This document shows, in pieces, positions 1 to 15,565 of a stretch of DNA of 64,000 nucleotides. The DNA comes from a virus. Its lineage: Duplodnaviria; Caudoviricetes. The stretch covers positions 31,568 to 95,567 of IMG/VR virus record IMGVR_UViG_3300028048_000102. The stretch is one strand, 5' to 3'. Position 1 is the stretch's first letter. Each line of letters opens with the position of its first letter. The notes beneath the pieces were generated by a model. It was not told the DNA's origin and made no database searches. It was given only the letters and a program-made list of their open reading frames with translations. The translations under genes were made by a program, and so were the position numbers.

Positions 1-2
1 CT

Positions 3-284
3 ATTCAAAGTCTTAGTGCTACTTTAAATGCTATAAATTCTAGAATATCTACTTTGGATACTAATATTTCAACTCTGTCCTCATCATTAAATTCATTGAC
101 CTCTAGAGTTTCTTCATTAGAATCTAGAATGAATTCAGTAGAATCTAGAGCTTCTACTTTGGAATCTAATGTAGCTTCTATAGCTGCTAGAACTTCCTCA
201 CTGGAAACTAAAGTAAATAGCAGTAGCGGAGGTAGTAGCAGTGGTGGTAGCTATGATAATACTCATGGTTGCCCAGGTAAATAA
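3..284 (+). CDS. C-terminal part of a coiled-coil fibre-like protein (5' truncated by the window)
   Basis: Frame is open from position 3 (IQSLSATLNAINSRISTLDTN...). Ser/Leu heptad repeats, then a GS linker and the tail YDNTHGCPGK. Confidence 0.75.
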   Translation: MQSLSATLNAINSRISTLDTNISTLSSSLNSLTSRVSSLESRMNSVESRASTLESNVASIAARTSSLETKVNSSSGGSSSGGSYDNTHGCPGK

Positions 285-305
285 TATAATGAAAAATAAA
301 ATTAC

Positions 306-334
306 TCATTCCTCCATATTTTATGGAGGAATGA
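306..334 (+). terminator. hairpin, likely terminator
   Basis: TCATTCCTCCATA / TATGGAGGAATGA inverted repeat followed by a T-run. Confidence 0.6.
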
Positions 335-354
335 TTTTTATTAATTAAAGGGGT

Positions 355-1533
355 ATGATTATGGTACTTGATGCACTATTTATAATGCTTGGAAAAGAAT
401 GTAATGGTAATTGTATTTATTGTGTTCAACATGATAAAGAATCTACAGCTAGTGAAGAATACTATAAAGAATTACCTAAAGTAATGAAGAATGAATCAGA
501 CATAATAAATTTTATAGTTGATCAAGCTGAAGATACTCATGAATCATTAGTAAGAAAGAATATTATAAATGTATATGGCTTACAAATAATGACTCTATAT
601 TTTATAGGTGGAGAGCCTTTATTATATTATGATACTATTAAGCATATGATTGAATTGATATCAGAAAAAACTAAGAATATACGATATTCAATTATAACTA
701 ATGGTATTCTAATGAATAGAGAAATGAGTAACTTTTTTAATATATATGATGTATTAGTTAAACTAAGTACTGATGGTAAATCATCTATAAAAACTAGATT
801 GATAGATGTATTTGATAATAAGAGATGTAGAAATGCTATATTGAATTGCAATAATCTAAAACTATCTGGAGTAATAACTCCATATTGCTATCCTTTAGAA
901 TTGGTAGAAAGTTTTGGAGAGATACATAAAGAATATATGACTCGCCATTATAGTACTCCTTCATATAGTTTTTCTCATCTTGTATTTTCTAAAGGATGTA
1001 ATAAATCATTATTAGAATTAGATTGGGAGCATTTTGAAAATGATATGTTCCATATTATTGATATATGTAATTCTACTGAAATAAATGATGAGACATATCC
1101 TATGTATTATATTTATAATACTTTTTGCAAATATATTTCTGAGGGAATTAATACAAATAGAATCCCAATATATGGAGTATGCTATGAAGATTATAATACA
1201 TTGCATATGGATTTAGATGGCAATCTATATGAATGCCATAATAATACTAATCAACTATCTACAATTTATGAGTCATTAGATAATTTCATATCAGAATTAT
1301 CTAAACTAGATAAAAGAAAGATGGATATTGATAATAAATGTGAATCATGCATTGTAAAAAATCTATGTATTGGAATATGCAGACGTGGAGAAGATTATGA
1401 AATAAATTGTGAATATATGATTAAATTCTTCGCTGTATTACAGAATGCATTCTATAGAGGAATCGAAAAGTATAAAGAGCTTAAGAATTTTAATATAAAT
1501 AAAGCATTAAACTATATTAATTTAAAGGGGTAA
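355..1533 (+). CDS. radical SAM/SPASM-domain protein 1
   Basis: CNGNCIYC, GGEP, TNG, STDG; C-terminal DLDGNLYECH and CESCIVKNLCIGIC. Confidence 0.9.
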   Translation: MIMVLDALFIMLGKECNGNCIYCVQHDKESTASEEYYKELPKVMKNESDIINFIVDQAEDTHESLVRKNIINVYGLQIMTLYFIGGEPLLYYDTIKHMIELISEKTKNIRYSIITNGILMNREMSNFFNIYDVLVKLSTDGKSSIKTRLIDVFDNKRCRNAILNCNNLKLSGVITPYCYPLELVESFGEIHKEYMTRHYSTPSYSFSHLVFSKGCNKSLLELDWEHFENDMFHIIDICNSTEINDETYPMYYIYNTFCKYISEGINTNRIPIYGVCYEDYNTLHMDLDGNLYECHNNTNQLSTIYESLDNFISELSKLDKRKMDIDNKCESCIVKNLCIGICRRGEDYEINCEYMIKFFAVLQNAFYRGIEKYKELKNFNINKALNYINLKG

Positions 1534-1539
1534 AATAAT

Positions 1540-2553
1540 ATGAATTTAAAAGTTGAAGTTATTTTAGGCAAAGAGTGTAATTTAGATTGTAAGTATTGTA
1601 ATAATAAGATTATGAAAGTTGGAACTTTATCAAAAGATGAAGATATTGATATATATGTTTTAGAATTTTTAAAAAGAGTTCCAAATCAGATAGCATTTTA
1701 TGGTGGAGAACCTTTATTACATTGGGATAGAATCGTTAGAATTATTGAATATACTGATTGTGATAGATTTAAGATAGTAACTAATGGATATTATTTAGAT
1801 GAGGAAAAAGTAAATTTCTTAAATAAATATAATGTAGATGTAGTTCTATCTTGGGATGGTCATCTATCTACTGCTAGAAATTATGATGTTATTAAAGATA
1901 ATAAAAGTAATATATTGAAAATAGATAATCTAATGATTACTTCTGTAATTACAACACAGAACTATCTTAAATCATTCTTAGATGAATTAGAAGATGTAGA
2001 GAAAGAATATTTTGATATTCATAATAAATACTTTGATATATATGCTGTTGTAGTAAATGAAAGTGATCAATTTGATATAAAAGATATCAAAGAATTATTT
2101 GAATTTGATCTTAATAGATTAAATAGAGAAGCTCAATATGTATGTGATCATTACAATGATAAAATATCATATAAAGTATTTATAAACACTTTGAAATTAT
2201 TATACGATTTTGAAACTGTAAAGAATGTTCCTGGTTGCTTATATGGATATAATAGAATAGCTATAGATCTAAAAGGAAATTACTATGCATGCTTAGATCT
2301 TGACCTTAGTTATATCAATGATAAAAATATAATCAATACTTCAGTTACTGATGCATTAAATCTAATAAATAAAGTTGATAAGTATCCTAGTAGATATGAA
2401 GATATGTGTAAAAAGTGTAATGTTATAGATATATGTAAACATGGATGTTCATATTTATCTAAAGAACAATTAGAAACTACATATTGCCCACCTAGAAAAG
2501 CGTTATATACTCCTATAATAGAATTTTTAAATAAATTAGAAGATGAAGAATAG
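1540..2553 (+). CDS. radical SAM/SPASM-domain protein 2
   Basis: CNLDCKYC, GGEP, TNG, SWDG; CKKCNVIDICKHGC; close paralog of 2641..3642. Confidence 0.9.
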   Translation: MNLKVEVILGKECNLDCKYCNNKIMKVGTLSKDEDIDIYVLEFLKRVPNQIAFYGGEPLLHWDRIVRIIEYTDCDRFKIVTNGYYLDEEKVNFLNKYNVDVVLSWDGHLSTARNYDVIKDNKSNILKIDNLMITSVITTQNYLKSFLDELEDVEKEYFDIHNKYFDIYAVVVNESDQFDIKDIKELFEFDLNRLNREAQYVCDHYNDKISYKVFINTLKLLYDFETVKNVPGCLYGYNRIAIDLKGNYYACLDLDLSYINDKNIINTSVTDALNLINKVDKYPSRYEDMCKKCNVIDICKHGCSYLSKEQLETTYCPPRKALYTPIIEFLNKLEDEE

Positions 2554-2561
2554 TGTATAAT

Positions 2562-2590
2562 TATACCCTAGACGAAATGTCTAGGGTATA
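2562..2590 (+). terminator. hairpin terminator
   Basis: TATACCCTAGAC / GTCTAGGGTATA followed by TTTTT. Confidence 0.7.
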
Positions 2591-2599
2591 TTTTTCGAA

Positions 2600-2611
2600 A
2601 ACATTTTAATA
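2600..2611 (+). promoter_or_regulatory. putative late promoter AACA-N6-TA
   Basis: AACATTTTAATA; same motif precedes the sheath and other structural genes. Confidence 0.55.
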
Positions 2612-2640
2612 ATCAAGAAGAAAAATGAGGGGGACTATGT

Positions 2641-3642
2641 ATGGATATAGAACTCGTTTTAGGTAAAGAGTGTAATTTAAATTGTGCTTATTGCCATAAT
2701 AAAGAAATGCATATAGATAGTATAGATGCTGATAATATTCCAATATCAACATTAGATTTTTTAAAGAGAGTTCCAACTAAGTTAACGTTTTATGGTGGAG
2801 AGCCTTTAATGTATTGGGATCATATACATAAAATATTAACTGAGTATTATAATCCAAACTGTCATTATTATTTAATTACAAATGGATATTACTTGAATAA
2901 AGATATTGCTAAAGTACTAAATGAGTGCAATGTTACTGTTTATATTTCTTATGATTGTAATATAAGTTACAGAGGTTATGATGTAATTGAAGAGAATAAG
3001 TATAATATTATGTATCTAAATGATATGGCTATAATGGGAACTACTAATTCTCAAGATTATTTTAAATCTTTACTTGATAAATTAAATAGATTGGAAGAAG
3101 AATATTTCTTTAGTCATAATAAGTATTTCAATATTTATATTGATTTCATCAATAAGTTTGATGATACTAATAAAAATGTGAAATATAATGATATAGCTAA
3201 CTATGATCTTAGTACATTAGAAGCAGAAGCTAAATACATTTGTGATCATTATAATTCTTATACATCTTATAAGATGTTTTTAGATAGTCTAAAAGAAATG
3301 TATGATGATGAGATTATACCTAGCAGTCCATCTTGTAGATACGGCTATAATAAGACTGTAATAGATTTATTTGGCAATTATTATGCATGCTTAGATGATG
3401 ACGATAATAATAATTGTAATATAATAAGCAACTCTGTTGATGATGCATTGAACTTATTAAAGAAAAAAGATAAATATAAAGATAGATATACTACTATATG
3501 TGCTGAATGTAATGTTAGAAAAATATGTAAGAATGGATGTAGCTACTATACTAAAGAAGACTTAGAACAGTATTATTGCCCACCTAGAAAAGCATTTTAT
3601 GCTCCTATAATAGAATTTTTTAAAAATAAATTAAAAGATTAA
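2641..3642 (+). CDS. radical SAM/SPASM-domain protein 3
   Basis: CNLNCAYC, GGEP, TNG; CAECNVRKICKNGC; YCPPRKA shared with 1540..2553. Confidence 0.9.
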   Translation: MDIELVLGKECNLNCAYCHNKEMHIDSIDADNIPISTLDFLKRVPTKLTFYGGEPLMYWDHIHKILTEYYNPNCHYYLITNGYYLNKDIAKVLNECNVTVYISYDCNISYRGYDVIEENKYNIMYLNDMAIMGTTNSQDYFKSLLDKLNRLEEEYFFSHNKYFNIYIDFINKFDDTNKNVKYNDIANYDLSTLEAEAKYICDHYNSYTSYKMFLDSLKEMYDDEIIPSSPSCRYGYNKTVIDLFGNYYACLDDDDNNNCNIISNSVDDALNLLKKKDKYKDRYTTICAECNVRKICKNGCSYYTKEDLEQYYCPPRKAFYAPIIEFFKNKLKD

Positions 3643-3655
3643 GGAGGGATATAAG

Positions 3656-4051
3656 ATGGCTAGTACATCAATTAGAAATGTAATTCTGGAATTTAATGCA
3701 GAAGATAAAATTAGATGGCAAGAATTGGCACCATCATTACAAGCTATGATTAATGGAATATCTAATTCTGTTAATTTAGTGAATAGTAATTTAGAAGATA
3801 TAAGTGATAGAATATCTGCTTTAGAGAATAGAGTTTCAGTAATAGAATCTATAATCAATAGTGGTGGTGGAAGCAGTAGTGGTGGTGGAGGTGCTTATAT
3901 ACTTCCAACGGCTACTAATAATGTTTTAGGCGGAGTCAAAGTAGGAGAAGGTTTATCCATATCTCCAGAAGGTGTATTGAATATATCTGGTTCAGAATCT
4001 GGCGATACATATGATATTGCTGAAGATGGAATAGCTGATCAATTGATTTAA
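3656..4051 (+). CDS. fibre-associated structural protein
   Basis: Short coiled coil, GS linker, and YILPTAT..LGGVKVGEGLSISPEGVL repeat typical of phage fibre proteins; SD GGAGG. Confidence 0.65.
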   Translation: MASTSIRNVILEFNAEDKIRWQELAPSLQAMINGISNSVNLVNSNLEDISDRISALENRVSVIESIINSGGGSSSGGGGAYILPTATNNVLGGVKVGEGLSISPEGVLNISGSESGDTYDIAEDGIADQLI

Positions 4052-4117
4052 TTATTTTTGGGTAATATTCCATTATTGGATATATTATTATAGATTAAAA
4101 GGAAGGAGAGATGCTAT

Positions 4118-4843
4118 ATGGCACTCACAGAAGCCCAACTTGCAAAAATTGCAAGAATTAAAGACTTGCAGACACTCGCTACAAAGGTTAAGACACTTTT
4201 TAACTCATCTGTAACAAGCGTTGATCTTGCTAAAGATACAACTGCCACTGAAGGGTATGCAGCAAGTTACACCTTGAGTGTTAACGGTACTCCTCTTAGT
4301 ACCAAGATTAACATTCCTAAGGATTTCCTCGTAAAATCTGCTACTTTGGCAACTGTATCAACTGCTGATACTCCTTATACTGGAGCAGCAATTGGTGATA
4401 AGTACATTGATTTCGTTATCAATGCTAAGGACGCCTCTGATGGTACTGGTGCAGAGCACATTTATCTGCCTGTAAGTGATCTCGTAGATACTTATACTGC
4501 AGGTAACGGTCTTTCTTTGAGCAGCGGTGCATTTAGTGTAGCTATTGATAGTACTAATGCTAACGGTCTGTCCGTAAGTGCTAGTGGTCTGGCTTTGGCA
4601 ACTGCTACTGCTTCTACTAGTGGTACTGGTGGTTCCAACGGTGCTATGTCCGCAACCGATAAAGAGAAGTTGAATGGTATTAGCACTCAGGCAACCAAGA
4701 CAACTGTAACTACTGAAAAGGCTGGTACTATTGAAATCGATGGTGTATCTAAGGTTATTGTTGATATTGCTACAGATTCCGATGTTACTGCTATGATGGA
4801 TGAAGTTTTCCCTTCTAGCTCAGGTGGCGGCACTGGAGAATAA
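4118..4843 (+). CDS. tail/head fibre-like structural protein
   Basis: Ala/Thr/Ser/Gly-rich; YTAGNGLSLS and GAMSATDKEKLNGI motifs common in phage fibre proteins. Confidence 0.65.
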   Translation: MALTEAQLAKIARIKDLQTLATKVKTLFNSSVTSVDLAKDTTATEGYAASYTLSVNGTPLSTKINIPKDFLVKSATLATVSTADTPYTGAAIGDKYIDFVINAKDASDGTGAEHIYLPVSDLVDTYTAGNGLSLSSGAFSVAIDSTNANGLSVSASGLALATATASTSGTGGSNGAMSATDKEKLNGISTQATKTTVTTEKAGTIEIDGVSKVIVDIATDSDVTAMMDEVFPSSSGGGTGE

Positions 4844-4867
4844 TAAGTTATAACCAAAAAAAAAACT

Positions 4868-4900
4868 GAAAGGGACTAAATAGTCCCTTTCTTTTTTTTT
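4868..4900 (+). terminator. intrinsic terminator
   Basis: GAAAGGGACTA / TAGTCCCTTTC + T9, preceded by an A-run. Confidence 0.85.
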
Positions 4901-4922
4901 AGAAAGTAGTGGTGTAAATAAT

Positions 4923-6266
4923 ATGGCAAATACGATCATTACGCTAGAACAACTAGAATATATTTTATTAGAATTAAAAGATTATATTGATAATAATGCA
5001 GGTACCACTATTGGCTGGGATTATGTGCTTAATAAGCCAGTATCTTTCCCGCCATCAAGTCATACCCATGATGATAGATATTATACAGAGGATGAAGTAG
5101 ATACTTTACTATCTGGCAAGTCTGATACTGGTCATACACATAGTCAGTATTTAACTGAGCATGCTACTGTAGATGATGCTTTAAGTGCTACTAGTACTAA
5201 CGCAGTACAAAATAAAGTAGTTCAAGCAGCATTGGCTGATAAGTCTGATACTGGCCATACTCATGATAATAGATATTACACAGAGAATGAAGTAGATACA
5301 TTATTAGATGGTAAGTCTGATACTGGTCATACTCATAGTCAATATTTGACTGAACATGCTACTGTAGATTCAGCTTTAAGTTCTACTAGTACTAATGCTG
5401 TACAAAATAAAGTTATAAATACAGCATTAGCTGGAAAGGCAGCTAGTGATCATACTCATAGCCAGTATTTAACTGCTCATGCCCCTGTAGATTCAGCATT
5501 ATCAAGTACTAGCACCAATGCTGTACAAAATAAAGTTATAAATTCAGCTCTAGCTGGCAAGTCTGATACTGGTCATACTCATAGTCAGTATTTAACTGAA
5601 CATCAAGATATTTCTGGTAAAGCTAATACAAGTGGAACTTATCCTAGTTTAATATCTGGAGGAGTTAGAGATTATAACAATGGATCTACTATCACTTTTG
5701 GATATTCAACTGCTGGAATGACTTCTACATCATGGTTAGCATCTTGGGATGGATATAGATTAAGAGCTATAGCACCCGCAAATGTTTCTGCTGGTTATGC
5801 ATCTACGGCTGGTACTGCTAATTCAGCATATTATGCTGACTATGCAGAGTTTTTCCCTCGTGGAGAAGAAACAGAAGTTGGAGATATTATTGCACTTGAT
5901 GAATTTTCTGAAGATGAAAAGTATGTTAAAGCAACTGAAAACTCTATATGTGTAATTGGAGTTCATTCAGAGGATTATGGTATAATTGTTGGTGGTGAAA
6001 ACCCTAAAGATGATATAGTAACAAGAGATAATTATTTTAAATATAATATTTCTAAATATATTCCTGTAAGTTTAGCAGGACGTGTTCCTGTTAAGTTTAA
6101 AGGTATATCTCATAAAGGTGTAAGAGTAGTACCTTCTGAAATACCTGGAGTTGGTAGAGCTTTTGATGCAACTAAAGATGATAGAGATTCTATTATAGGC
6201 TATCTTGTAGAATCTGATAATGGAGATAACGAAGAAATAAGATTACTTAAAATGAAAATAAAGTGA
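4923..6266 (+). CDS. tail fibre protein with HxH repeats and a C-terminal peptidase G2/intramolecular-chaperone-like domain
   Basis: Repeats of GKSDTGHTHSQYLTEH and ALSSTSTNAVQNKV; C-terminal ADYAEFF...GDII...IGV.S...PVSLAGRVPVK. Confidence 0.8.
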   Translation: MANTIITLEQLEYILLELKDYIDNNAGTTIGWDYVLNKPVSFPPSSHTHDDRYYTEDEVDTLLSGKSDTGHTHSQYLTEHATVDDALSATSTNAVQNKVVQAALADKSDTGHTHDNRYYTENEVDTLLDGKSDTGHTHSQYLTEHATVDSALSSTSTNAVQNKVINTALAGKAASDHTHSQYLTAHAPVDSALSSTSTNAVQNKVINSALAGKSDTGHTHSQYLTEHQDISGKANTSGTYPSLISGGVRDYNNGSTITFGYSTAGMTSTSWLASWDGYRLRAIAPANVSAGYASTAGTANSAYYADYAEFFPRGEETEVGDIIALDEFSEDEKYVKATENSICVIGVHSEDYGIIVGGENPKDDIVTRDNYFKYNISKYIPVSLAGRVPVKFKGISHKGVRVVPSEIPGVGRAFDATKDDRDSIIGYLVESDNGDNEEIRLLKMKIK

Positions 6267-6276
6267 GGTAATAATT

Positions 6277-7398
6277 GTGGGGAAATTTTTGAATTTAGGT
6301 TGTAATACATTGATGTTTATAATGGGGCAGGGATGTAATCTTAGTTGTTCATACTGTTTAAAACATACTCTAATAAATGAGCAGTTACCTGTAAACGTAT
6401 CTCCAGTAATTTTTGAATATTTGGATTTCTTAGCTGAAGAAGGTACTTGTCCAATTAATTGTAACTACTTTGGTGGAGAACCTCTTGTTTATTATGATGG
6501 CGTTAAATCTATTGTAGAGCATTGCAATCAAATAGAACAAAGACTAGATAAAAAGATTTTTCACCACTCAATGATTTCAAATGGAAAGTCACTTAATGAA
6601 GAAATAGTAGAGTTTCTTAATAAAAATAACTTTGCTTATACTATAAGCTGGGATGGTAATAATAGTATAGAAACTAGAGGATATGATGTTATAGAAGACA
6701 AGTTTGATTTATTACTAAAAATAAATAATCTTGGAATATCATCTGTGATATCTTCTAAGTCGTATCCTCTAGATGTAGTAAATGCAATGCAGAAATTTGA
6801 TGATGAATATTTTGCTAAGAACAATAGCCATGTTCGTTGTAATTTTGATGATATAATGGATACTGGTGTTGGAGTTGAAAATCAAGAACTATGCAAAATT
6901 GATCCTGAGAGATTTGAATCAGATATTCAAAAGATTTTTGATATGTATGAAGAAGATGTATTAAGTAATCAGACTTTATTAAATAAATATCATGTTGCTA
7001 TAAGATACTGTATGAATAATATTAACTCAATTAAACATTATCTAAAAGAAGGACCTAATAAAATTTCTAGATGTGGTCAAGGATTGGAAGTTTTAAATCT
7101 TGATATGTCTGGAAAAATTTATGATTGTCATAACGTTACTACAGGTGAAATTGGGCATTTGCAGTATGATAGTATTCCATTTATTAGAAATATAATAGCT
7201 AGTGAATATAAAACTATGCATAGAATAAATACTATTTGTAAAGATTGTCAAGCTATATCACTTTGTGGTGGTGGATGTAAATATGTAGAAGATGAAAGAA
7301 TAGGCACTTCTTGCATGCAGAGTATTATCAAATTCAATGTGATTTCAGATAGATTAATAAAGTTAGCAGAGAAAGTTGGTGAAGCAAGTGGCTGTTAA
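6277..7398 (+). CDS. radical SAM/SPASM-domain protein 4
   Basis: CNLSCSYC, FGGEP, SNG, SWDG..RG; NLDMSGKIYDCH, CKDCQAISLCGGGC; GTG start. Confidence 0.92.
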   Translation: MGKFLNLGCNTLMFIMGQGCNLSCSYCLKHTLINEQLPVNVSPVIFEYLDFLAEEGTCPINCNYFGGEPLVYYDGVKSIVEHCNQIEQRLDKKIFHHSMISNGKSLNEEIVEFLNKNNFAYTISWDGNNSIETRGYDVIEDKFDLLLKINNLGISSVISSKSYPLDVVNAMQKFDDEYFAKNNSHVRCNFDDIMDTGVGVENQELCKIDPERFESDIQKIFDMYEEDVLSNQTLLNKYHVAIRYCMNNINSIKHYLKEGPNKISRCGQGLEVLNLDMSGKIYDCHNVTTGEIGHLQYDSIPFIRNIIASEYKTMHRINTICKDCQAISLCGGGCKYVEDERIGTSCMQSIIKFNVISDRLIKLAEKVGEASGC

Positions 7399-7741
7399 TG
7401 GTGCAATATCTAAAACAAGTTTTACTGACCAAAGTTCTTTAGCAGATAGTGTAACATCTGTTAAAGCTAAAACTGTTCATATAAATGAATTAAGAACTGC
7501 TGTTGATACTTTAACAAGTGCTAGTGCAAATGTGGATAATTGTGGTAATTGTACTTTTTGCCAAGGAAATCAAAGTAATCAAAATTGCCAAACAGATGGA
7601 TGTGAAGGATGTCAAACTTCTTATAATCAATCTTGTGAAACTTGTCAAACCTGTCAAAATGCCACTTTAAATCAATCTAATCAAGCAAATCAAAGTAATC
7701 AAGGATATAATTATAATAGTTGTCAATCAAATCGTCGTTAA
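7388..7741 (+). CDS. Cys/Gln/Asn-rich protein A, candidate radical SAM substrate
   Basis: Probable GTG start at 7388 (ORF track starts 7376). N-terminal KTVHINELRTAV, then 10 Cys in (C/N)Q(S/T)-type triplets. Confidence 0.75.
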   Translation: MAVNGAISKTSFTDQSSLADSVTSVKAKTVHINELRTAVDTLTSASANVDNCGNCTFCQGNQSNQNCQTDGCEGCQTSYNQSCETCQTCQNATLNQSNQANQSNQGYNYNSCQSNRR

Positions 7742-7757
7742 GGTGAGGTGATATAGA

Positions 7758-8195
7758 ATGGCTTATACAGATACTATAACGACAGGTACTCAAGTTAAAT
7801 TAGTACATGCTAAAGAATTAAAAGAGCAAATGGAAACACTTGCTACTAATGCAAGCGTATCAGTTTCTTTTACTGGATGGGGTACTTCAAAACCAACAAA
7901 AGTTAATATGGAGCTTTTACAAAATGCATGTAATAAATTAGAAGACGAATTTTCTTATAATTGTTGTCAGAATGATTGTTGTCAAACAAATCAGTCAAAT
8001 TGTAAAAATCAATCTGTATTAAATCAAACTAATCAAACTTGTGAAACTGCTGCTTGTGAATCTTCAACTTGTCAAACTAATCAAAAAGATCAGGCATGTC
8101 AATCTTATACTAATCAAGGTAATTGCTCATCATATAATCAAAGTTGTCAAAATAATATGTCTTGCGGTGGCTGTGGCGGTTGCGGTGGTATGTAA
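7758..8195 (+). CDS. Cys/Gln/Asn-rich protein B, candidate radical SAM substrate
   Basis: SD GAGGTG; N-terminal KLVHAKELK; 15 Cys; ends CGGCGGCGGM. Confidence 0.8.
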   Translation: MAYTDTITTGTQVKLVHAKELKEQMETLATNASVSVSFTGWGTSKPTKVNMELLQNACNKLEDEFSYNCCQNDCCQTNQSNCKNQSVLNQTNQTCETAACESSTCQTNQKDQACQSYTNQGNCSSYNQSCQNNMSCGGCGGCGGM

Positions 8196-8218
8196 TTGTA
8201 ATTAAAGAGGTATAATAT

Positions 8219-9289
8219 ATGTTTAATTTTGGTAGTTATAGGCTTAAAATTATACTAGGTAGTGCTTGTAATTTACATTGTAAATATTGTGAGCAAAATA
8301 GTAATATATGTAAGTTACCAGAAGTTATATCTAGTAATTTATTACACTATTTGAAATGGATTAACGGGTTTAATGAAAGAACTAGAATTCAATTTTTTGG
8401 CGGAGAACCATTACTTTATTTAGATAAAATAAAACAACTTGTACAGTTTATAGAGAAAGAAAATCTAAATAACTTTGCGTTAGATATACCAACTAATGGT
8501 AAATTACTTACAGAAGAAATCATTGATTATTGTAATAAACATAACATAGTTTTATGCTTATCTTGGGAAGGTAAAAATACTAAATTAGATAGAGGATATG
8601 ATGTTATAGAAGATAAAAAAGACTTAATTTTTAAAATAAAAAATTTAGCTTTTTCGAGTGTATGGACAAAAAATTCTTTACCATTTGATGCTTTAAGTGA
8701 TGTTCAAAATATTCTAAATGATTATAGAATACAAACTGGATTAAATTATAGAATAAATGCTAATTCATTATTTATGTGTGATTTATCTGGTAATAATTCT
8801 TTAAATATATATGATTTAAATATTTTAACGGAACAATATAAGAAAATATTTAAAGTATATAAAGAATATATGAATAATCATTCTCAGGAATATTATGAAA
8901 ATAATAGATTAATAATAGAATATGTACAATATTTAATTTCAACTATTCGAAAAGAATTACAAAATCCTACAAAAAATGCTTGGTGTGATTCTATTGTAGA
9001 CACTTTAAATTTAGATTTAGATGGTAATATTTATAAATGCCCTTTATTATTAAATGAGCCTATAGGTAATGTAATAACTGATTCAAATAGAGTATTATTA
9101 CAAAACTATGCTTATTCTGAATTAAATATTATGAATCGTAGAGAGAATATGTGTAAAGATTGTGCAGCTCATGTTATATGCCGTGGTGGTTGTAAAGAAG
9201 TATCTAATAAAAATATTGAATCGAATTGTAAATTATGGAAAGGTTTATTTGAAATAATTTATAATGAGATAATAAGTATAAGTTCATAG
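8219..9289 (+). CDS. radical SAM/SPASM-domain protein 5
   Basis: CNLHCKYC, FGGEP, TNG; DLDGNIYKC, CKDCAAHVICRGGC. Confidence 0.92.
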   Translation: MFNFGSYRLKIILGSACNLHCKYCEQNSNICKLPEVISSNLLHYLKWINGFNERTRIQFFGGEPLLYLDKIKQLVQFIEKENLNNFALDIPTNGKLLTEEIIDYCNKHNIVLCLSWEGKNTKLDRGYDVIEDKKDLIFKIKNLAFSSVWTKNSLPFDALSDVQNILNDYRIQTGLNYRINANSLFMCDLSGNNSLNIYDLNILTEQYKKIFKVYKEYMNNHSQEYYENNRLIIEYVQYLISTIRKELQNPTKNAWCDSIVDTLNLDLDGNIYKCPLLLNEPIGNVITDSNRVLLQNYAYSELNIMNRRENMCKDCAAHVICRGGCKEVSNKNIESNCKLWKGLFEIIYNEIISISS

Positions 9290-9299
9290 AGGTGTTTTA

Positions 9300-10325
9300 A
9301 TGCTATCACCAAATTTTGATACTATTTATTTAATGCTTGGATTTGATTGTAATGCTAGTTGTAAATATTGTTTACAAAAAGGTATTCAAAAATCTTTATC
9401 TACAGAAATAAATGAAGATATAATAGATTTTATATCAAGTTTTAACAATAAAAATTTTCTAGTTACTTTTATTGGTGGTGAACCTTTATTATATTGGGAT
9501 AAAATTAAATATATTGTACAAAAAGTACATAATAAAAAGGTTTATTCAAAGTATAGAATATTTACTAATGGATTGCTACTAGATAATGAGAAAATAGAAT
9601 TTCTAAATAAAAATGATTTTAATGTTTCATTATCATGGGATGGTATAAATACTAATCAAACTAGATCGTTTGATATATTTTCTATGAATAGTAAAATATT
9701 GAATATCAAAAATTTGCTAATAAATTCAATTCTTACTAAATACTCTTATCCTAGCGATATTATAGATGGAGTTATTAAGATAAATGAAAAGTATAAGAAA
9801 ATTCATGGATATAATTTAAGAATGCATATAGAACCATTTTGTGATACTGGTACTTGTAATCAAGATTCTCTTAATAATATGGACTATAATAAGTTATATG
9901 AAGAAATCTATAATTTAACTACTAAAGTTTTAAATAATAATGGGGAAGATTTAATATATCAAGAATTTATCTTAGATAAGTTAAATAAAATAACTAATGG
10001 ATTGAAATATGATCCAGTTATTAGTAGAGGCGGTTGCAAATGTGGTTGGAATCATCTAAATATGGATCTACAAGGTAATTTATATAGATGCCATAATACC
10101 ATACAGTTAGTTGGAAATATAAATGATACCTTAGATATGTATTATAAAAAATTATCACAAGTAGATACTAGAAAAAGGGATACGAGATGTAGTGATTGTG
10201 AAGTAAGATGGCTTTGTCAAGGTGGATGTAAAACAGTACCTGAAGAATTAGAAGAAAAATATTGCGAAGTTCAAAAAGCCTATTATATAGGATTTTATAA
10301 AGCTTTAGAAGACTGGGGGAAATAA
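9300..10325 (+). CDS. radical SAM/SPASM-domain protein 6
   Basis: CNASCKYC, GGEP, TNG, SWDG; DLQGNLYRCH, CSDCEVRWLCQGGC; paralog of 10327..11427. Confidence 0.92.
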   Translation: MLSPNFDTIYLMLGFDCNASCKYCLQKGIQKSLSTEINEDIIDFISSFNNKNFLVTFIGGEPLLYWDKIKYIVQKVHNKKVYSKYRIFTNGLLLDNEKIEFLNKNDFNVSLSWDGINTNQTRSFDIFSMNSKILNIKNLLINSILTKYSYPSDIIDGVIKINEKYKKIHGYNLRMHIEPFCDTGTCNQDSLNNMDYNKLYEEIYNLTTKVLNNNGEDLIYQEFILDKLNKITNGLKYDPVISRGGCKCGWNHLNMDLQGNLYRCHNTIQLVGNINDTLDMYYKKLSQVDTRKRDTRCSDCEVRWLCQGGCKTVPEELEEKYCEVQKAYYIGFYKALEDWGK

Positions 10326-10326
10326 T

Positions 10327-11427
10327 GTGTTAGGGTATAGTTTTGAAAGCGTTTATTTAATGCTAGGCTCAGATTGTAATGCAAATTGTTCTTATTGTTT
10401 GCAAAAGGGTAATACTAAAAAACAAAAATTTCCAGATAAATTGAATTATAAAGTAATTGACTTTATTGAGTTAATGGCTTCTAGATATTATGAATCACAA
10501 GAAAATACTCCAGTAAATAATAGAAAATATTTTTGGGTAACTTACTTTGGTGGAGAACCATTATTAAAATTTGATTTGATAAAAGAAGTAAATGAAGAAC
10601 TTTTAAAAAGAGGAGTTATTTTTAGAAGTTCTATAATAACTAATGGGTTATTATTAGATGAAGATAAAGTAAATTATTTCAATAAACATAATTTTGTTGT
10701 AGCACTTTCGCATGATGGGCTATACTCTAAGAAAAATAGAGGATATAATGTATTTGAAATAGTTGATTCTAATGTGATTATGAAAATAAATAGGTTAGCA
10801 CTTAATGCAGTGCTAACTGTTAATTCTTATCTTGATGATATTATAGAAGATTATTTGAATATAAATGAGAAGTATAGTGAAGTTCATAATTATAATATTG
10901 AAATGAATATAGAAACTTTCTTAGATACTGGAAGTTGTAATCAAGAAAAGTTAGATGATTTTGACTATGATAAATTATATAATCAATCTTATAATTTAAT
11001 GATGAAATATGCTAAAGGAAATTATAATGATAAAACTTTACCATCAAATAATTTAATATCAAAATATATCAAAGAATTTATATTAAAAGTAAAAAATAAT
11101 ATAAATTCCACTCCAGAAAGGGGTGGATGTTATTGTGGCCGAAAGGTATTAAATTTAGATTTAGATGGTAATTTGTATAGCTGTCATAATTCAAGTTTCC
11201 CTATAAGTAGAATAGAAGATAGTATAAATGATTACTTTATTAATCTAGGATGTGCAGATAGACGAGTAAATGTTCCTCCATGTGAAGATTGTTATGTAAA
11301 GTTCCTTTGTGTTGGAGGATGTAAAATGGTTCCTGAAGAACTAGATGAAAAATACTGTAAGATGCAAAGAGCTTTTTATGGTGGATTTATAAAAGCTTTA
11401 TGCGATTGGGGTGAAAATTGTGATTAA
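10327..11427 (+). CDS. radical SAM/SPASM-domain protein 7
   Basis: CNANCSYC, FGGEP, TNG, SHDG..RG; DLDGNLYSCH, CEDCYVKFLCVGGC. Confidence 0.92.
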   Translation: MLGYSFESVYLMLGSDCNANCSYCLQKGNTKKQKFPDKLNYKVIDFIELMASRYYESQENTPVNNRKYFWVTYFGGEPLLKFDLIKEVNEELLKRGVIFRSSIITNGLLLDEDKVNYFNKHNFVVALSHDGLYSKKNRGYNVFEIVDSNVIMKINRLALNAVLTVNSYLDDIIEDYLNINEKYSEVHNYNIEMNIETFLDTGSCNQEKLDDFDYDKLYNQSYNLMMKYAKGNYNDKTLPSNNLISKYIKEFILKVKNNINSTPERGGCYCGRKVLNLDLDGNLYSCHNSSFPISRIEDSINDYFINLGCADRRVNVPPCEDCYVKFLCVGGCKMVPEELDEKYCKMQRAFYGGFIKALCDWGENCD

Positions 11428-11962
11428 TTATTATCTTAAGTTGGGAAAGGTTATTAAAGGTAAAAAATTAGATAATAATTACTATATTGGAACTAATTTT
11501 GTTTATGAATCTGAACAAGAACCAGAGAAACATAAACAATTATACCATGGTAATTATTTAATAATGGATACATGGGGTGATAATTGGTTTTTAAAATTAC
11601 CATATGATAATGCTAGTGGAAGTGTTCTTTTAAGTGGTTTAGGATTAGGTGTTTTACCTAATTTATTATTAACTAAGACAGAAGTAACAGAAATATTAAT
11701 AGTTGAAAAAGAAAAATCTATTATTGATTATATAAAACAATATATAGATTCTGATAAAGTTAATTATATTTGGATGGATATAAGAGATTATCATCCAGAT
11801 AAAGAATTTGATTATTGTTTTATTGATATTTGGTGTGACGAAAATAGAAAAGAAAGAGAATCAGATGAGAAAATATTACTTGAAAATCTTTCATCATATT
11901 GTAAGAGAATTGATTTTTGTCAAACTTTAGAAGAAGCTAAAAAATATTGTGGGGAGGAATAA
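11411..11962 (+). CDS. class I SAM-dependent methyltransferase / spermidine-synthase-like protein
   Basis: VLLSGLGLG motif I, acidic IVEKE, FDYCFIDIW; start may be GTG at 11420. Confidence 0.7.
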   Translation: MKIVINYYLKLGKVIKGKKLDNNYYIGTNFVYESEQEPEKHKQLYHGNYLIMDTWGDNWFLKLPYDNASGSVLLSGLGLGVLPNLLLTKTEVTEILIVEKEKSIIDYIKQYIDSDKVNYIWMDIRDYHPDKEFDYCFIDIWCDENRKERESDEKILLENLSSYCKRIDFCQTLEEAKKYCGEE

Positions 11963-11965
11963 ATT

Positions 11966-12583
11966 ATGGCATATGGTGAATGGTTACCAAAATTAAATCC
12001 ACAGTATGGTGGATTTGAAGATGGTGATGTAATAGCTTATGAAGAAAGAGATAATATAGTTGGATATAGAAAAGCTAATTCCAATGATAAGTTTATTATT
12101 GGTGTAGTTTGTAATGGCTGTACTGCATTTAGTCATACAGAACCAAATCCATTCTTTTATGATTCTGCTGGTAATGAAATAGAATTTAAAGATAATCAGG
12201 AAAAAACTTCATATGGATTTATTCCTGTAGCTTTAAATGGTATTGTTAGAGTCAAATTCAAAGGCGAATTTGTTTCTGGTGGATTAGTGTGTATGTCTGA
12301 TGTACAAGGAGTATCAAGATTACAAACTAATCCTGATACTGAAGTAGCTTTTGGTAAACTCTTAAATGATATAAGTCCTAGTGAAGGTGAAGAAGAATCA
12401 ATAAGATATGTAGATATAATACTATTAGATAATAGTATTCTTACTAAAATTGATAATACAGATCAGGAAACTGAAGCTTTAATTGCTGAGAACAAAGAAT
12501 TAAAGGAGCAAGTTTCTGAGCTTAATGATGCATTATTAGAAGTAATGTTTGGTTCAGAAGAGGAATCTTTTGATGAATTATAA
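11966..12583 (+). CDS. stand-alone peptidase G2/chaperone-like domain plus coiled coil (tail fibre accessory)
   Basis: YGEWLP..GDVI..IIGVV..IPVALNGIVRVKFKG parallels the C-terminus of 4923..6266; tail ELKEQVSELNDALLE. Confidence 0.6.
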   Translation: MAYGEWLPKLNPQYGGFEDGDVIAYEERDNIVGYRKANSNDKFIIGVVCNGCTAFSHTEPNPFFYDSAGNEIEFKDNQEKTSYGFIPVALNGIVRVKFKGEFVSGGLVCMSDVQGVSRLQTNPDTEVAFGKLLNDISPSEGEEESIRYVDIILLDNSILTKIDNTDQETEALIAENKELKEQVSELNDALLEVMFGSEEESFDEL

Positions 12584-12597
12584 GGAGTTGTTAAATT

Positions 12598-12762
12598 ATG
12601 GCAAGTTTTTTGGCAAGAAATCTTATTGCAGGTAAAATCAAATGGTCTCAGATTGAGAATTCTAAGACTTATGCTAAGTATGCGGATGCTACACTTGTAA
12701 TACTGGAAGAACAAGGTTACATAATTGATGAAAATGGTAATTGTGTACCAGCCTCTAACTGA
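12598..12762 (+). CDS. small 54-aa protein closing the tail-fibre module (XkdX/CD1375-like position)
   Basis: SD AAGGAG; MASFLARNLIAGKIKWSQI...; below the ORF-track cutoff. Confidence 0.55.
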   Translation: MASFLARNLIAGKIKWSQIENSKTYAKYADATLVILEEQGYIIDENGNCVPASN

Positions 12763-12841
12763 AAACTATCTAAGAAGTTAATTCAAGAATTATTTTTACA
12801 TAGTAAAAATATAGTAAGAAAAATTATAAGCTAATAACTGT

Positions 12842-12867
12842 TCCCTCTACCCAATTGGGTAGAGGGA
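12842..12867. terminator. bidirectional hairpin terminator, CCCTCTACCC family
   Basis: TCCCTCTACCCA / TGGGTAGAGGGA between convergent genes. Confidence 0.75.
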
Positions 12868-12873
12868 TATATA

Positions 12874-13185
12874 TTATTCATCATTTCTCATATTGAGTAA
12901 TATTTCACCAGCATATAAATATTTCTTAATATTAGAAAATTTATCTTCAAATTTGAATATATTATTCTTTCTATCTACCCAATATATAATATCTTCTGGT
13001 ATATAGTCTAAAGCTACTGTATTATATGTAAATACTTCAATTTTTTCATATTTACTATACTCCAGAAATTTATCAATTTCTCTCTCCATAATATGGGGAT
13101 GATAATCAAATTTCTTTTCTTTTATACCTTTAGACTTTAAGAAATCTATTTGTTTTTCTGTTTCTGGTACATATACTTTTAGCAT
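12874..13185 (-). CDS. hypothetical protein, paralog of 13202..13528
   Basis: Shared KVY.PE..QI.FLKS, FDYHP, TYNT.ALD.IP, YWVD, YLYAG. Confidence 0.8.
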   Translation of the reverse strand: MLKVYVPETEKQIDFLKSKGIKEKKFDYHPHIMEREIDKFLEYSKYEKIEVFTYNTVALDYIPEDIIYWVDRKNNIFKFEDKFSNIKKYLYAGEILLNMRNDE

Positions 13186-13201
13186 TTATTTTTCTCCTTC
13201 C

Positions 13202-13528
13202 TTAAGAATAATATTCTTTTGCTATCGTACTAAGTAATGTTTTTCCAGCATAAAGATAGTTTGATATATTACCAAACTTCTCTTCAAATTTAAGTATTGT
13301 ATTTCTCTTATCTACCCAATATAAATATTTTTTAGGTATAAAGTCCAATGCTAAAGTATTATATGTATATACTTCTAATGAAGTATTATAATTTTTATCT
13401 ACCCATTCATCTACTTTATCAAATAAAATACTTGGGTGATAGTCAAATTTCTCTTCTTTGATATCTCTAGACTTTAAAAACTCTATTTGAGCATCACTTT
13501 CTGGAATATATACTTTCATTTTAGTCAT
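13202..13528 (-). CDS. hypothetical protein, paralog of 12874..13185
   Basis: Tandem paralog with a good SD. Confidence 0.8.
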   Translation of the reverse strand: MTKMKVYIPESDAQIEFLKSRDIKEEKFDYHPSILFDKVDEWVDKNYNTSLEVYTYNTLALDFIPKKYLYWVDKRNTILKFEEKFGNISNYLYAGKTLLSTIAKEYYS

Positions 13529-13704
13529 AAATCATACCTCTTAAACTTAGATTCTATTTCTTTCTTTTCTAAATCAAAATCTTTTTCTTTTTTAAATATC
13601 ATTCTCCATGTATAAACAATCAAGATTCCTATAAGTATAAGCATTAATATAACAAATATCAGATATATTATTCCTAAATATGTAATTACTTCTAGTATAT
13701 CCAT
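13525..13704 (-). CDS. small single-TM membrane protein (59 aa)
   Basis: MDILEVITYLGIIYLIFVILMLILIGILIVY...; overlaps neighbouring start/stop codons. Confidence 0.6.
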   Translation of the reverse strand: MDILEVITYLGIIYLIFVILMLILIGILIVYTWRMIFKKEKDFDLEKKEIESKFKRYDL

Positions 13705-13967
13705 TACTTAGTAATCCTCCTGTCATAATAATCTACTTTATCTCCATAGTTTATATAATCTAATTGTTCAGAGTCATAGTACTTAATAGATTTTTTGAGT
13801 TTCTCTGTTTTATGTATATCATCTTTTACAAGCCGTACTATCTCTATATATCCTTTATACATCATAGCACTAAGTACAAGCATCATTACACATGTAATAA
13901 TGCCACAAATTCTAATAAATATTGTATCATCCAATAATTTCATCTCCAAACAAAGTAAGTTGCTCAT
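13704..13967 (-). CDS. small membrane protein
   Basis: One hydrophobic helix; start uncertain. Confidence 0.55.
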   Translation of the reverse strand: MSNLLCLEMKLLDDTIFIRICGIITCVMMLVLSAMMYKGYIEIVRLVKDDIHKTEKLKKSIKYYDSEQLDYINYGDKVDYYDRRITK

Positions 13968-14346
13968 ATTTAGGAAGAGTAACCTCTTTTTCTTTTTCTT
14001 TGAATCTTAACTCCTCGCATTTGAATCCATTATCATTTAGCCACTTAGAAACTAAATGTCTATGACAGAACTTTTCTGGAGATTCAAAGCACACTAAAAT
14101 CCTATTTCTTAATTCTCTTTCTACAATCTTAGGATCAAGAGTACTAAGATAATTATTATAATCAATAGTATATTTATTTACATCCCTTGTTTCTTTATAT
14201 CTATAAAGAATATCTTTAGGAGGAGCTAACTTAGGATATCTAGGAATAAAAATTCCTTTTGGTACATATAAAGCTATGCCAACACATCTAGTTTTCTGAT
14301 ATGAAGACATTTTCTTCATTGCCGCAAAATAAGAAGTATATATCAT
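13927..14346 (-). CDS. DUF488-like protein
   Basis: MIYTSYF...LAP...LVCFESPEKFCHRHLV..WL signature. Confidence 0.75.
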   Translation of the reverse strand: MIYTSYFAAMKKMSSYQKTRCVGIALYVPKGIFIPRYPKLAPPKDILYRYKETRDVNKYTIDYNNYLSTLDPKIVERELRNRILVCFESPEKFCHRHLVSKWLNDNGFKCEELRFKEKEKEVTLPKYEQLTLFGDEIIG

Positions 14347-14591
14347 AATTCTACGTCTCCTATTATTTCTTTAATTTTATCTTCATCTTTAGCCCATACT
14401 ACTTCAAAACTTTTAAAAGAATCTTTATATCTAGTAACCATATACACATATGGTTCAAGAGCACTTATTGGTCTTAAATGGTGAAAATCTAATCCCATTG
14501 TCATTTCTCTACTAATAACTACAGCTTGTTTTCTTTCATCATTATTAAATTTATAGTGAATAATATCTCCTTTTTGTAATAACGCTAACAT
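14343..14591 (-). CDS. hypothetical protein
   Basis: ORF with SD; ATGA overlap with the next gene. Confidence 0.6.
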   Translation of the reverse strand: MLALLQKGDIIHYKFNNDERKQAVVISREMTMGLDFHHLRPISALEPYVYMVTRYKDSFKSFEVVWAKDEDKIKEIIGDVEL

Positions 14592-14634
14592 GTAATATCA
14601 CCATCCCCTTAATACTAAGTAATTTTATAATTAA

Positions 14635-14654
14635 AAATATACTATATATATGAG
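14635..14654 (+). promoter_or_regulatory. putative early phage promoter motif
   Basis: AAATATACTATATATATGAG; seven copies in the window, all upstream of non-structural genes. Confidence 0.7.
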
Positions 14655-14689
14655 TAAGTAAAAAGCTCAAATAAAAGGAGGAAAATAAA

Positions 14690-15565
14690 ATGAAATTAAA
14701 AGGTAAGACTGGAGGATCTTGGTCAAAGATCGTAGAGTTTAATAAAGGAGAATACATTCATAAATTTAGTGCTCGAGCAATTCAGTTTGCTGATCCAAGT
14801 TTTGTATTAAAGCATGAAATTATTAGTATCGATGGTACTGAGAAATATGTAAACAAATTTATATTTGCAATTTATGATATCAATGTAATAGAAAGATATG
14901 ATGTATCTTTATTCATTGATCATCACAAAGATCTTCATAATTATAAGGATATCTTAACAACTAATCTTCTTTACTATATAAATAGAAGAAAGAAAATATT
15001 AGAAAAAGTTCATCCTAGAATGACCAATGAAGAATTATATGAGGCTGTAAAAAGTTCGAAGAATAGGTTCTCAGCAGATTTTATAATATATAGTACTAAA
15101 GAAGGAGATAAAGGAGATAGAAAAGTACGAATATCTTTAGCTAATATAGAAATATATAGCAAAAAGTATTACTTAGTTGCAGTTCAAATTAAAACTAAAG
15201 ATGGTTGGGACTTAAAATCAATTTCATATGGCGGAAGAGCATTTAAATTGGTAGATGCTAAGAATGGAATTATAAATGTACCAGATGCTATCTTCCATTA
15301 TAGTAATGGGAAACTAATTGCTTCTCCAGTATTTATTGGATATGAGAATGGATACATTAATGGATACATGAGAAAGAAATTAGAAGAATTAGTTAATGTA
15401 GCAATAGATTACATGAAAGAAAAAGGTAAAGAAAAACCATTCCTTAAGCTTAGAACTGATTATCGTGATTATGATACATATGTATATGGTATTCCTAAGT
15501 ATGATAAAACTAAGCTTGCTAAAGAACTCAGATTGGATAATGAAAGCTGGGTTTTGCCATTTTAA
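14690..15565 (+). CDS. hypothetical (putative early) protein
   Basis: 291-aa ORF with strong SD AGGAGG after the motif. Confidence 0.8.
   Translation: MKLKGKTGGSWSKIVEFNKGEYIHKFSARAIQFADPSFVLKHEIISIDGTEKYVNKFIFAIYDINVIERYDVSLFIDHHKDLHNYKDILTTNLLYYINRRKKILEKVHPRMTNEELYEAVKSSKNRFSADFIIYSTKEGDKGDRKVRISLANIEIYSKKYYLVAVQIKTKDGWDLKSISYGGRAFKLVDAKNGIINVPDAIFHYSNGKLIASPVFIGYENGYINGYMRKKLEELVNVAIDYMKEKGKEKPFLKLRTDYRDYDTYVYGIPKYDKTKLAKELRLDNESWVLPF

Follow-up and report, generated by a model that had tools for sequence, protein, structure and literature searches.

We report that a 64,000-nucleotide stretch of viral DNA (hereafter the window), corresponding to bases 31568-95567 of the single 95.6 kb contig IMGVR_UViG_3300028048_000102, encodes within a tail-fibre region (355-11427) seven intact radical S-adenosylmethionine (SAM)/SPASM enzymes, rSAM1 to rSAM7, together with two small Cys-rich proteins, here termed CysA and CysB. 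The contig represents a portion of a jumbo-type phage genome recovered from bovine gut metagenomes, and the enzymes are accompanied by a weakly supported methyltransferase-fold gene and four fibre-type genes. We consider the chances even that CysA and CysB receive thioether cross-links from the enzymes and would act as proteins together with the fibre. An initial annotation of the same DNA had proposed that this system matures fibre components of the virion; the linkage of the genes to fibres supports that proposal, but the evidence presented below points to CysA and CysB, rather than the large fibre proteins, as the substrates.

Radical SAM/SPASM enzymes

All seven enzymes are encoded on the plus strand, as rSAM1 (355..1533; 392 residues), rSAM2 (1540..2553; 337 residues), rSAM3 (2641..3642; 333 residues), rSAM4 (6277..7398; 373 residues), rSAM5 (8219..9289; 356 residues), rSAM6 (9300..10325; 341 residues) and rSAM7 (10327..11427; 366 residues). 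Every one scores above the Pfam Radical_SAM cut-off (PF04055; 33.6-49.7 bits versus 29.5), so that the initial count of seven such genes interleaved with fibre genes holds, and every one carries CX3CX2C (at residues 11-27), GGEP and the complete seven-Cys SPASM pattern (CX9-15GX4C ... CX2CX5CX3C ... C, for two auxiliary clusters), with the CX3CX2C and SPASM cysteines all invariant in a seven-way alignment. Six enzymes also exceed the cut-off of the SPASM hidden Markov model (HMM) TIGR04085 (29.1-41.9 versus 27), with rSAM3 slightly under it at 25.7. The seven are paralogues of 25-50% identity, the closest pairs being rSAM2/rSAM3 (50%) and rSAM6/rSAM7 (43%).

When a profile of the seven enzymes was compared with solved structures, the best match was the SCIFF thioether synthase CteB (5WGG; E 3.8e-33), ahead of the anaerobic sulfatase-maturating enzyme (anSME; 1.4e-18). 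The alignment begins only at CteB residue 96, showing that the recognition element (RRE) for peptides made by ribosomes and modified after translation (RiPPs) is absent, and with CX3CX2C inside the first 27 residues there is indeed no room for one. The best-scoring NCBIfam models were PapB, QhpD and the SCIFF maturase, all of them formers of Cys thioethers. Since the scores are well under the cut-offs for PapB (NF047865; 50.7-106.8 bits versus 340), QhpD (TIGR03906; at most 97.8 versus 453, with QhpC, QhpE and QhpG neighbours absent) and the SCIFF maturase CteB/ScfB (TIGR03974; at most 90.4 versus 425, with alignments beginning at profile position ~95-105), the enzymes belong to none of these families. 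Scores were likewise low for anSME (TIGR03942; at most 57.7 versus 349), the CXXX-repeat maturase (TIGR04115; at most 36.5 versus 350) and CrpC (TIGR04463; at most 36.2 versus 525), and among Atlas look-alikes the target family of the CXXX-repeat maturase was confined to a single distant cluster, where 19% of members carried it. By family models and by the structure-matched profile the enzymes are thus placed nearer to thioether-forming SPASM enzymes than to anSME, and an anSME reading was rejected because the sulfatase motif (C/S-x-P-x-R in anSME substrates) is absent from both CysA and CysB.

Maximum-likelihood analysis groups the window's seven enzymes with all enzymes encoded immediately before CysA in related loci as one clade (support 90/98), with QhpD-like and other bacterial SPASM proteins falling outside it; rSAM4 is the orthologue of the pre-CysA enzyme of all related loci. 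Searches of phage records with rSAM4 by tblastn gave only distant matches (22-28% identity), an rSAM4-based pattern search of viral contigs gave none, and megablast with window positions 1-12800 found no match among 50,697 phage records. Radical SAM enzymes of DNA hypermodification were considered and rejected, as they form another subgroup that has no SPASM relatives among the matches.

The Cys-rich proteins CysA and CysB

CysA (7388..7741, plus strand; 117 residues) and CysB (7758..8195, plus strand; 145 residues) are the only credible Cys-rich coding open reading frames (ORFs) of the whole 95.6 kb contig, in agreement with the two Cys/Gln-rich proteins first noticed. The GTG start of CysA at 7388, which overlaps the end of rSAM4, is upheld because the family N-terminus (MAVNG...) fits there. 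Both proteins consist of a conserved N-domain of ~50-65 residues followed by a core in which (C/N)-Q-x recurs with period 3: in CysA an N-domain with the motif K-x-x-H-I-x-E-L-R-x-A leads through NVDNCGNC into the core, and in CysB a related N-domain leads through the junction F-S-x-N-C-C-Q-x-x-C-C-Q-T into a core and the terminal CGGCGGCGGM. The cores of CysA and CysB hold 10 and 14 Cys, 14 and 13 Asn, and 13 Gln each, with Gln preceded by Cys or Asn in 13/13 and 12/13 cases, respectively, and the autocorrelation of the C/N positions is 14 at lag 3 versus ~5 at lags 2 and 4.

In the subfamilies of CysA and CysB from small phages (see below), every Cys and the Gln following it are invariant and the spacer residues vary. 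Between the window and its close relative L006, Cys and Asn are swapped at five aligned (x)Q positions, a pattern that fits a ladder position in a repetitive fold or a mixture of cross-link donors and acceptors and that no reading fully explains. Neither protein has a Pfam, NCBIfam or PHROG family or a sequence or fold match in the PDB, and their N-termini are not signal peptides. Similarity to CXXC zinc fingers was weak, far below significance, and was rejected as compositional. A tblastn search with CysA gave no match with the low-complexity filter on, and a word-index search with CysB returned only CysB itself.

AlphaFold2 predicts the N-domain with moderate confidence (pLDDT 75-94) as one long helix. 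When the two N-domains were modelled as a complex, the ipSAE score was 0.43 versus 0.03 for the best control, with at least 76% contact agreement between runs and a partner pLDDT of at least 66; that mark is reached by 58/80 solved complexes and 2/110 mismatched pairs, scores of 0.60 or below accounting for 7 of those 80 complexes and for both mismatches. The models therefore hint that the N-domains of CysA and CysB may bind each other.

Related loci and their carriers

Small siphovirus-like contigs (31-48% G+C) carry the closest homologues of rSAM4, at 34-45% identity, and every near homologue with readable context directly precedes a CysA/CysB pair. The conserved order of this cassette and its surroundings is chaperone-bearing tail fibre, rSAM, CysA, CysB, Hint-like protein, 273-residue protein, divergent second rSAM, 224-residue protein, holin-like genes and amidase. 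An HMMER search of 1.8 billion representative proteins retrieved 47 CysA clusters, and further loci were located with a degenerate DNA pattern for the invariant NVDNCGNC junction of CysA. At 40/41 IMG/VR loci with the pattern, the order was fibre with a gp12-type autochaperone (IMC) domain, rSAM, CysA and CysB (the remaining one is a chance match), and the same order occurs in 13 bacterial prophages, between tail and lysis genes. The 60 CysA sequences form 22 clusters at 95% identity and 9 at 60%.

All but one of the 13 prophage records are named Negativicutes (12/13: Acidaminococcus, Megasphaera, Dialister, Selenomonadaceae and Succiniclasticum), and these strict anaerobes, along with the bovine gut metagenomes, substantiate the anaerobic host proposed initially. 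Isolates of Acidaminococcus fermentans, A. massiliensis and Megasphaera sueciensis are among the carriers of the prophage cassette. A further 14/27 pattern matches in bacterial genomes proved not to be the cassette, nine lying in one long helicase-like protein of Bacteroidales and allies, which we take to be RecQ with its zinc finger, and five being chance matches in short or uncalled frames; with the helicase-like matches excluded, Bacteroidota are not indicated as hosts.

The synteny also bears out the link to tail genes: none of the related loci found has the cassette away from tail-fibre genes, and in all of them it is accompanied by the gp12-type autochaperone domain. In L003, head-completion genes are followed by tail tube, tape measure, Dit, a YqbQ-like protein, tail fibre, cassette and amidase, and in L013 and L031 tape measure or tail fibre precedes the cassette and endolysin follows it. 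The IMC-bearing gene of L003 matches PHROG tail fibres at E 1e-28 and its L031 counterpart at 1e-28 to 1e-30; in L031 the chaperone is a separate gene, as it is in the window (11966, see below). In L003 and L004 the fibre stop and the rSAM start overlap by 1-4 nucleotides. Neither transporter nor peptidase was found in the window or in related loci, which agrees with the initial annotation.

Several relatives encode the Cys-rich modules as parts of larger proteins. On a 71.7 kb metagenome contig (L008:545-8563), the CysA module ends a 530-residue double-LamG protein and the CysB module a 324-residue globular protein, and behind these fusions come genes for a ThiF-like E1 enzyme, for three additional rSAM enzymes (one a double-domain protein of 604 residues) and for anaerobic ribonucleotide reductase. 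In small phages a Hint-like protein without the N-terminal Cys follows CysB (L003:11823-12209 and homologues), and in some relatives (P0078, P0085 and P0103) a complete Hint domain is fused right after the last Cys of CysA, a link that, judged by sequence, suggests C-terminal cleavage or ligation of the Cys-rich module. A search for longer forms of CysA yielded one apparently chimeric protein and one Hint fusion. Moreover, in ~24 small-phage loci (L003:7597-8220, L004:1160-1816 and ~22 others), the gene two places ahead of the fibre encodes a protein of 207-230 residues with the Cys/Asp tail of the local CysA/CysB at its end, of the type N-C-D-C-G-D-D or C-S-D-D-S-G-G-G, and the variant co-varies within the locus. 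The window's phage has no homologue of this protein.

Fibre genes and the autochaperone domain

The gene at 4923..6266 (plus strand) encodes a 447-residue tail fibre with five GHTHSQY-type repeats, an identification made initially and now confirmed by Pfam PTR (32.7 bits versus 27). Its last ~140 residues (from ~5838) constitute a gp12-type autochaperone (Peptidase_G2 IMC) domain that is 50% identical to the C-terminus of the L003 fibre. The IMC profile aligns to the C-terminal fragment of phi29 gp12 (3GQH) from residue 1, and Pfam Peptidase_G2 (PF11962) is matched by 3/7 family members (best E 4.6e-6). The product of 11966..12583 (plus strand; 205 residues), initially called a fibre accessory protein, aligns with this domain and is a free-standing autochaperone-like protein with a C-terminal helix: its AlphaFold2 model (pLDDT 75) has the gp12-type fold, the best Foldseek match being 3GQH (E 3e-5, TM 0.60). 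By sequence and predicted fold, both the 4923 C-terminus and the 11966 product are members of the phi29 gp12 Peptidase_G2 family.

Upstream, the 3' end of a gene for a 184-residue coiled-coil fibre-like protein occupies 1..284 (plus strand), the gene starting 270 nucleotides before the window (L002:16297-16851); its matches to tail-needle/fibritin-type coiled coils are weak. The protein has a GS linker and a nine-residue C-terminal tail, DNTHGCPGK, that is 9/9 identical in L006 although the whole protein is only 61% identical, and the gene directly precedes rSAM1-2. Going by the sequence, this tail may be a second substrate and is a candidate for rSAM1-3. The 131-residue fibre-type protein at 3656..4051 (plus strand; PHROG tail fibre, E 2.4e-5, and alignment with the coiled-coil protein and L006) comprises an N-terminal anchor motif, a coiled coil, a Gly/Ser linker and a fibre-tip motif. 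Near their N-termini both coiled-coil proteins have the motif N-x-E-D-K-[VI]-R-W-x-E-L-A-P-S-L-Q, suggesting that they attach at a common site. The 241-residue fibre-like protein at 4118..4843 (plus strand) is rich in Ala, Ser, Thr and Gly, is free of Cys, has a weak PHROG match and is 72% identical to its L006 homologue.

Organization and divergence of the region

The core block is tightly packed, as had been noticed at the outset, with intergenic gaps of -17 to +23 nucleotides. A scan of positions 1-15000 found 15 terminator-like hairpins versus 2.6 expected, all of those given here being on the plus strand: one at 306..334, one in the rSAM2/rSAM3 interval (2562..2590), one preceding the core operon (4868..4891) and the strongest, of 11 pairs, at the operon end (12842..12867). 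The last two flank the core block, and three units are delimited by the hairpins, namely rSAM1-2, then rSAM3 and two fibre genes, and finally a core operon (4923-12762). A late promoter motif that had been placed at 2600 is not borne out, since the terminator-like hairpin 2562-2590 lies there and sigma-70-like promoter matches show no excess (115 versus 118 by chance).

Two further genes belong to the core operon. The 183-residue product of 11411..11962 (plus strand), originally described as a methyltransferase, has a predicted class-I methyltransferase/spermidine-synthase-like fold; the assignment is supported by PHROG 15480 (E 1.7e-9) and by viral ESM Atlas look-alikes that bear the name spermidine synthase (11-17% of their members having Pfam families), but not by any sequence match in Pfam, NCBIfam or PDB. 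The last gene is a conserved small ORF of 54 residues (12598..12762, plus strand; 86% identity in L006).

Comparison with L006 revealed that rSAM1 and rSAM2 are 90-92% identical (rSAM1 90% to L006_a, rSAM2 92% to L006_b), that the downstream RNA polymerase gene is 82% identical and the flanks overall 82-92%, whereas the genes from rSAM4 through the free-standing IMC-like gene reach only 44-58%. The core cassette thus stands out as a divergent island, its enzymes and substrates changing in concert, a pattern typical of host-interaction modules. Since L006 has five enzymes in the same order, lacking rSAM3 and having one gene for the rSAM6/rSAM7 pair, rSAM3 and one of rSAM6/7 are recent extra copies.

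The phage

The contig has no terminal repeat, and the genome is therefore incomplete. PhoH, a BRO-type anti-repressor, virion structural proteins and a large terminase are encoded by the phage DNA, which has 26-37% G+C, as are a split family-B-like DNA polymerase, an RNA polymerase beta-subunit homologue and an ORF exceeding 3,990 codons that continues past the contig end. The RNA polymerase homologue, the large terminase and the DNA polymerase in two distant genes (window 18078-20237, 23695-25983 and 45700-47754; L002:959-2893) form a gene set indicative of a jumbo phage that brings its own transcription apparatus. At least two further studies of bovine gut metagenomes contain near-identical DNA, and bioreactor metagenomes contain part of it; the word share in one metatranscriptome was 0.06, which is no evidence of expression.

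Other features of the contig were noted in passing. It begins within a gene whose product, read by eye, starts with a tubulin/FtsZ-like Gly-rich motif. The giant ORF (window 52031-64000) has at least 3,990 codons, and its first 1,500 residues match only PHROG 26249, to which no function is assigned there. A minus-strand block of six or seven small genes (window 12874-14757), among them one for a DUF488-N3a protein (13927-14346; Pfam 34.1 bits versus a cut-off of 27), separates two plus-strand late blocks, and a 209-residue protein encoded on the minus strand (window 34902-35531) has 40% identity to the amidase (endolysin) that closes the cassette region of L003.

Discussion

The chemistry proposed here is of a known kind, and SPASM enzymes that cross-link whole proteins have precedents in CrpC/CrpA and QhpD/QhpC. 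In Methanococcus voltae, the SPASM enzyme CrpC makes ranthionine thioethers on the Cys-rich protein CrpA (Dieter et al. 2026, PMC13692751). Like CrpC/CrpA (with CrpB), the window has two adjacent substrate-like proteins with a common N-terminal region and repetitive Cys motifs; acceptors in the CrpA system are Gln or Asp, and no peptidase or transporter is shown there. Unlike the window enzymes, CrpC has an RRE and belongs to TIGR04463 (for which rSAM7 scores 36 bits versus 525), and CrpA has 17-residue repeats in place of (C/N)-Q-x triplets. CrpC/CrpA is also an archaeal, chromosomal system of one enzyme with no phage or fibre context, whereas the window has seven enzymes in a phage. QhpD forms several intraprotein Cys thioethers in QhpC, the gamma subunit of quinohemoprotein amine dehydrogenase (PMC7876137), and QhpC, a small Cys-containing subunit and structural part of a larger assembly, parallels the role proposed for CysA and CysB. 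QhpD-like proteins are the nearest cellular homologues after the phage clade, but the phage enzymes form a separate clade and score at most 98 bits versus 453 for QhpD, and the phage loci are without QhpG/QhpE, a leader-processing protease and a quinone cofactor.

Among solved structures CteB/SCIFF (5WGG/5WHY) comes closest, and among curated families, ranked by score, PapB/PapA (freyrasin) does. They share with the window three [4Fe-4S] cluster motifs and cores rich in Cys, Gln, Thr and Ser, and their ranthipeptide cores carry several Cys-to-side-chain thioethers, whereas the links in the window are only predicted. The window enzymes differ in being RRE-less and in their scores (51-107 bits versus the PapB cut-off of 340, at most 90 versus 425 for SCIFF), and the substrates, unlike ranthipeptides, are fibre-linked proteins of 117-145 residues or domains of proteins of 300-530 residues. 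The autochaperone of the phi29 gp12 appendage (3GQH/3SUC) has sequence family and fold in common with the 4923 C-terminus and the 11966 product, and the first residue of the released gp12 fragment is precisely where the alignment starts; phi29 lacks partner genes of the radical SAM or Cys-rich kind, whereas in the window one chaperone copy is a separate gene. The literature searched held no description of radical SAM enzymes tied to phage fibres, nor do the CrpC and QhpC papers (PMC13692751, PMC7876137) have phage content, such that the phage fibre setting is not in the literature found.

Is the product a protein or a peptide? A protein is favoured because of the LamG and globular fusions, the Hint fusions, the tail-module protein with the same Cys tail, and the lack of peptidase, transporter and signal peptide. 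The main rival is a RiPP-like product whose N-domain is a leader and whose core resembles those of SCIFF/ranthipeptides; it is suggested by the additional use of the fibre-lysis junction for cargo and by the leader-plus-core appearance of the substrates. Such a product would be released by phage lysis (making a transporter unnecessary) and would serve as an extracellular bacteriocin or signal, or else influence host physiology from within the cell, with the fibre adjacency reflecting a cargo slot. We regard such a product as unlikely, though as a serious contender: the leader-plus-core layout with its highly conserved junction, the kinship of the enzymes to the maturases CteB and PapB, and the position of the small-phage cassette between fibre and endolysin, a common moron site, all speak for it. 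Against it, no locus has a leader peptidase, the modules in L008 are C-terminal parts of lectin-type or globular proteins of 324-530 residues, and a tail-module protein carries the same Cys tail. The cassette, moreover, always has the gp12-type chaperone domain directly ahead of it, the stop and start codons often overlapping, and in the window it lies between fibre genes of a jumbo phage that does not look temperate.

It is improbable, in our estimate, that CysA and CysB instead bind metal or iron-sulfur clusters, as a metallothionein- or ferredoxin-like helper for the seven enzymes or as a metal-bound fibre knot, the true substrates of the radical SAM enzymes being fibre proteins; candidate sites would be the 4923 fibre's His-rich repeats and the coiled-coil fibre's DNTHGCPGK tail. 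The CxxC spacing, the zinc-finger similarity (far under significance), the interchange of Cys and Asn at aligned positions and the strictly conserved Cys tail encoded just before rSAM1-2 are consistent with this possibility, as are the H-x-H repeats of the fibre, which resemble known metal sites of T4-type fibres. It is countered by the co-occurrence everywhere of CysA, CysB and an enzyme, whereas of the fibre only the chaperone domain is common to the loci, the shafts differing completely; by the small-phage fibres, which are almost Cys-free; and by the number of dedicated enzymes, since to our knowledge seven for one redox helper would be unparalleled. Least probable of the alternatives is another SPASM chemistry on CysA and CysB (carbon-carbon cyclophane formation, epimerization, or Cys-to-formylglycine conversion as by anSME), for although chemistry is not readable from homology when every family score is far below its cut-off, and anSME and cyclophane-forming families are among the weak matches, the cores are nearly without aromatics for cyclophanes and without the C-x-P-x-R sulfatase motif, Cys is the invariant residue, and the best structural and profile relatives are thioether formers.

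Several points weigh against thioether cross-linking of CysA and CysB as parts of the fibre apparatus. We infer the modification and its chemistry, the identity of the substrates and their location in the virion alike, and the cut-offs of all curated thioether maturases lie far above the scores reached. In temperate phages, cargo (moron) genes are also classically sited where tail fibre and lysis genes adjoin, and a conserved N-domain with a variable Cys core is exactly the layout of a RiPP precursor. The predicted core is unstructured (pLDDT below 50), and the N-domain is without a solved-fold match. The swaps between Cys and Asn would be odd if every Cys were a cross-link donor, and the cysteines could instead form a structural ladder or serve as metal ligands. 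Since CysA and CysB of the window are without the Cys/Asp tail and the Hint partner, conclusions from the small phages transfer only partly.

On the thioether reading that we favour, the region is a late island of fibre genes in a jumbo-type phage whose host is a rumen anaerobe, and an RRE-less, phage-specific SPASM family, expanded here to seven paralogues, would serve two dedicated substrates. The N-domain of each substrate probably mediates recognition by the enzymes and perhaps the pairing of CysA with CysB. In the anoxic cytoplasm of the host, each enzyme would cleave SAM and abstract hydrogen from a carbon of a core residue, likely a Gln, Asn, Ser or Thr adjoining a Cys, and would then join a Cys sulfur to that carbon. 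Several enzymes with different site preferences could thereby produce a multiply stapled mini-domain resisting reduction and proteases. The matured CysA and CysB would be neither cut nor exported and would work with the fibre encoded just upstream; their most likely place in the host-binding apparatus is that of a tip or an accessory component.

More tentatively, and with somewhat less confidence than in the cross-linking itself, we suggest that phages of anaerobes staple part of their host-binding fibre apparatus by thioethers, which would be a new virion maturation after the cross-links of HK97-type capsids; as part of the same suggestion, seven enzymes and the Cys/Asn swaps would give varied cross-link topologies, making the cassette a fast-evolving determinant of host range or stability. 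The family also offers many putative natural enzyme-substrate pairs, with seven enzymes and two substrates in one operon here, for the site selectivity of RRE-less SPASM enzymes. If the stapling is real, viruses would use for particle building the radical SAM chemistry of RiPP antibiotics and a few cellular proteins, and the resulting mini-domains, very stable by virtue of their cross-links, would be of use in protein engineering. Phages that dominate gut and rumen ecosystems would have added an enzymatic, oxygen-sensitive step to fibre assembly, which would explain why such phages carry costly iron-sulfur enzymes and would provide a concrete reason for a possible dependence of correct assembly, in some phages of anaerobes, on an anoxic host.

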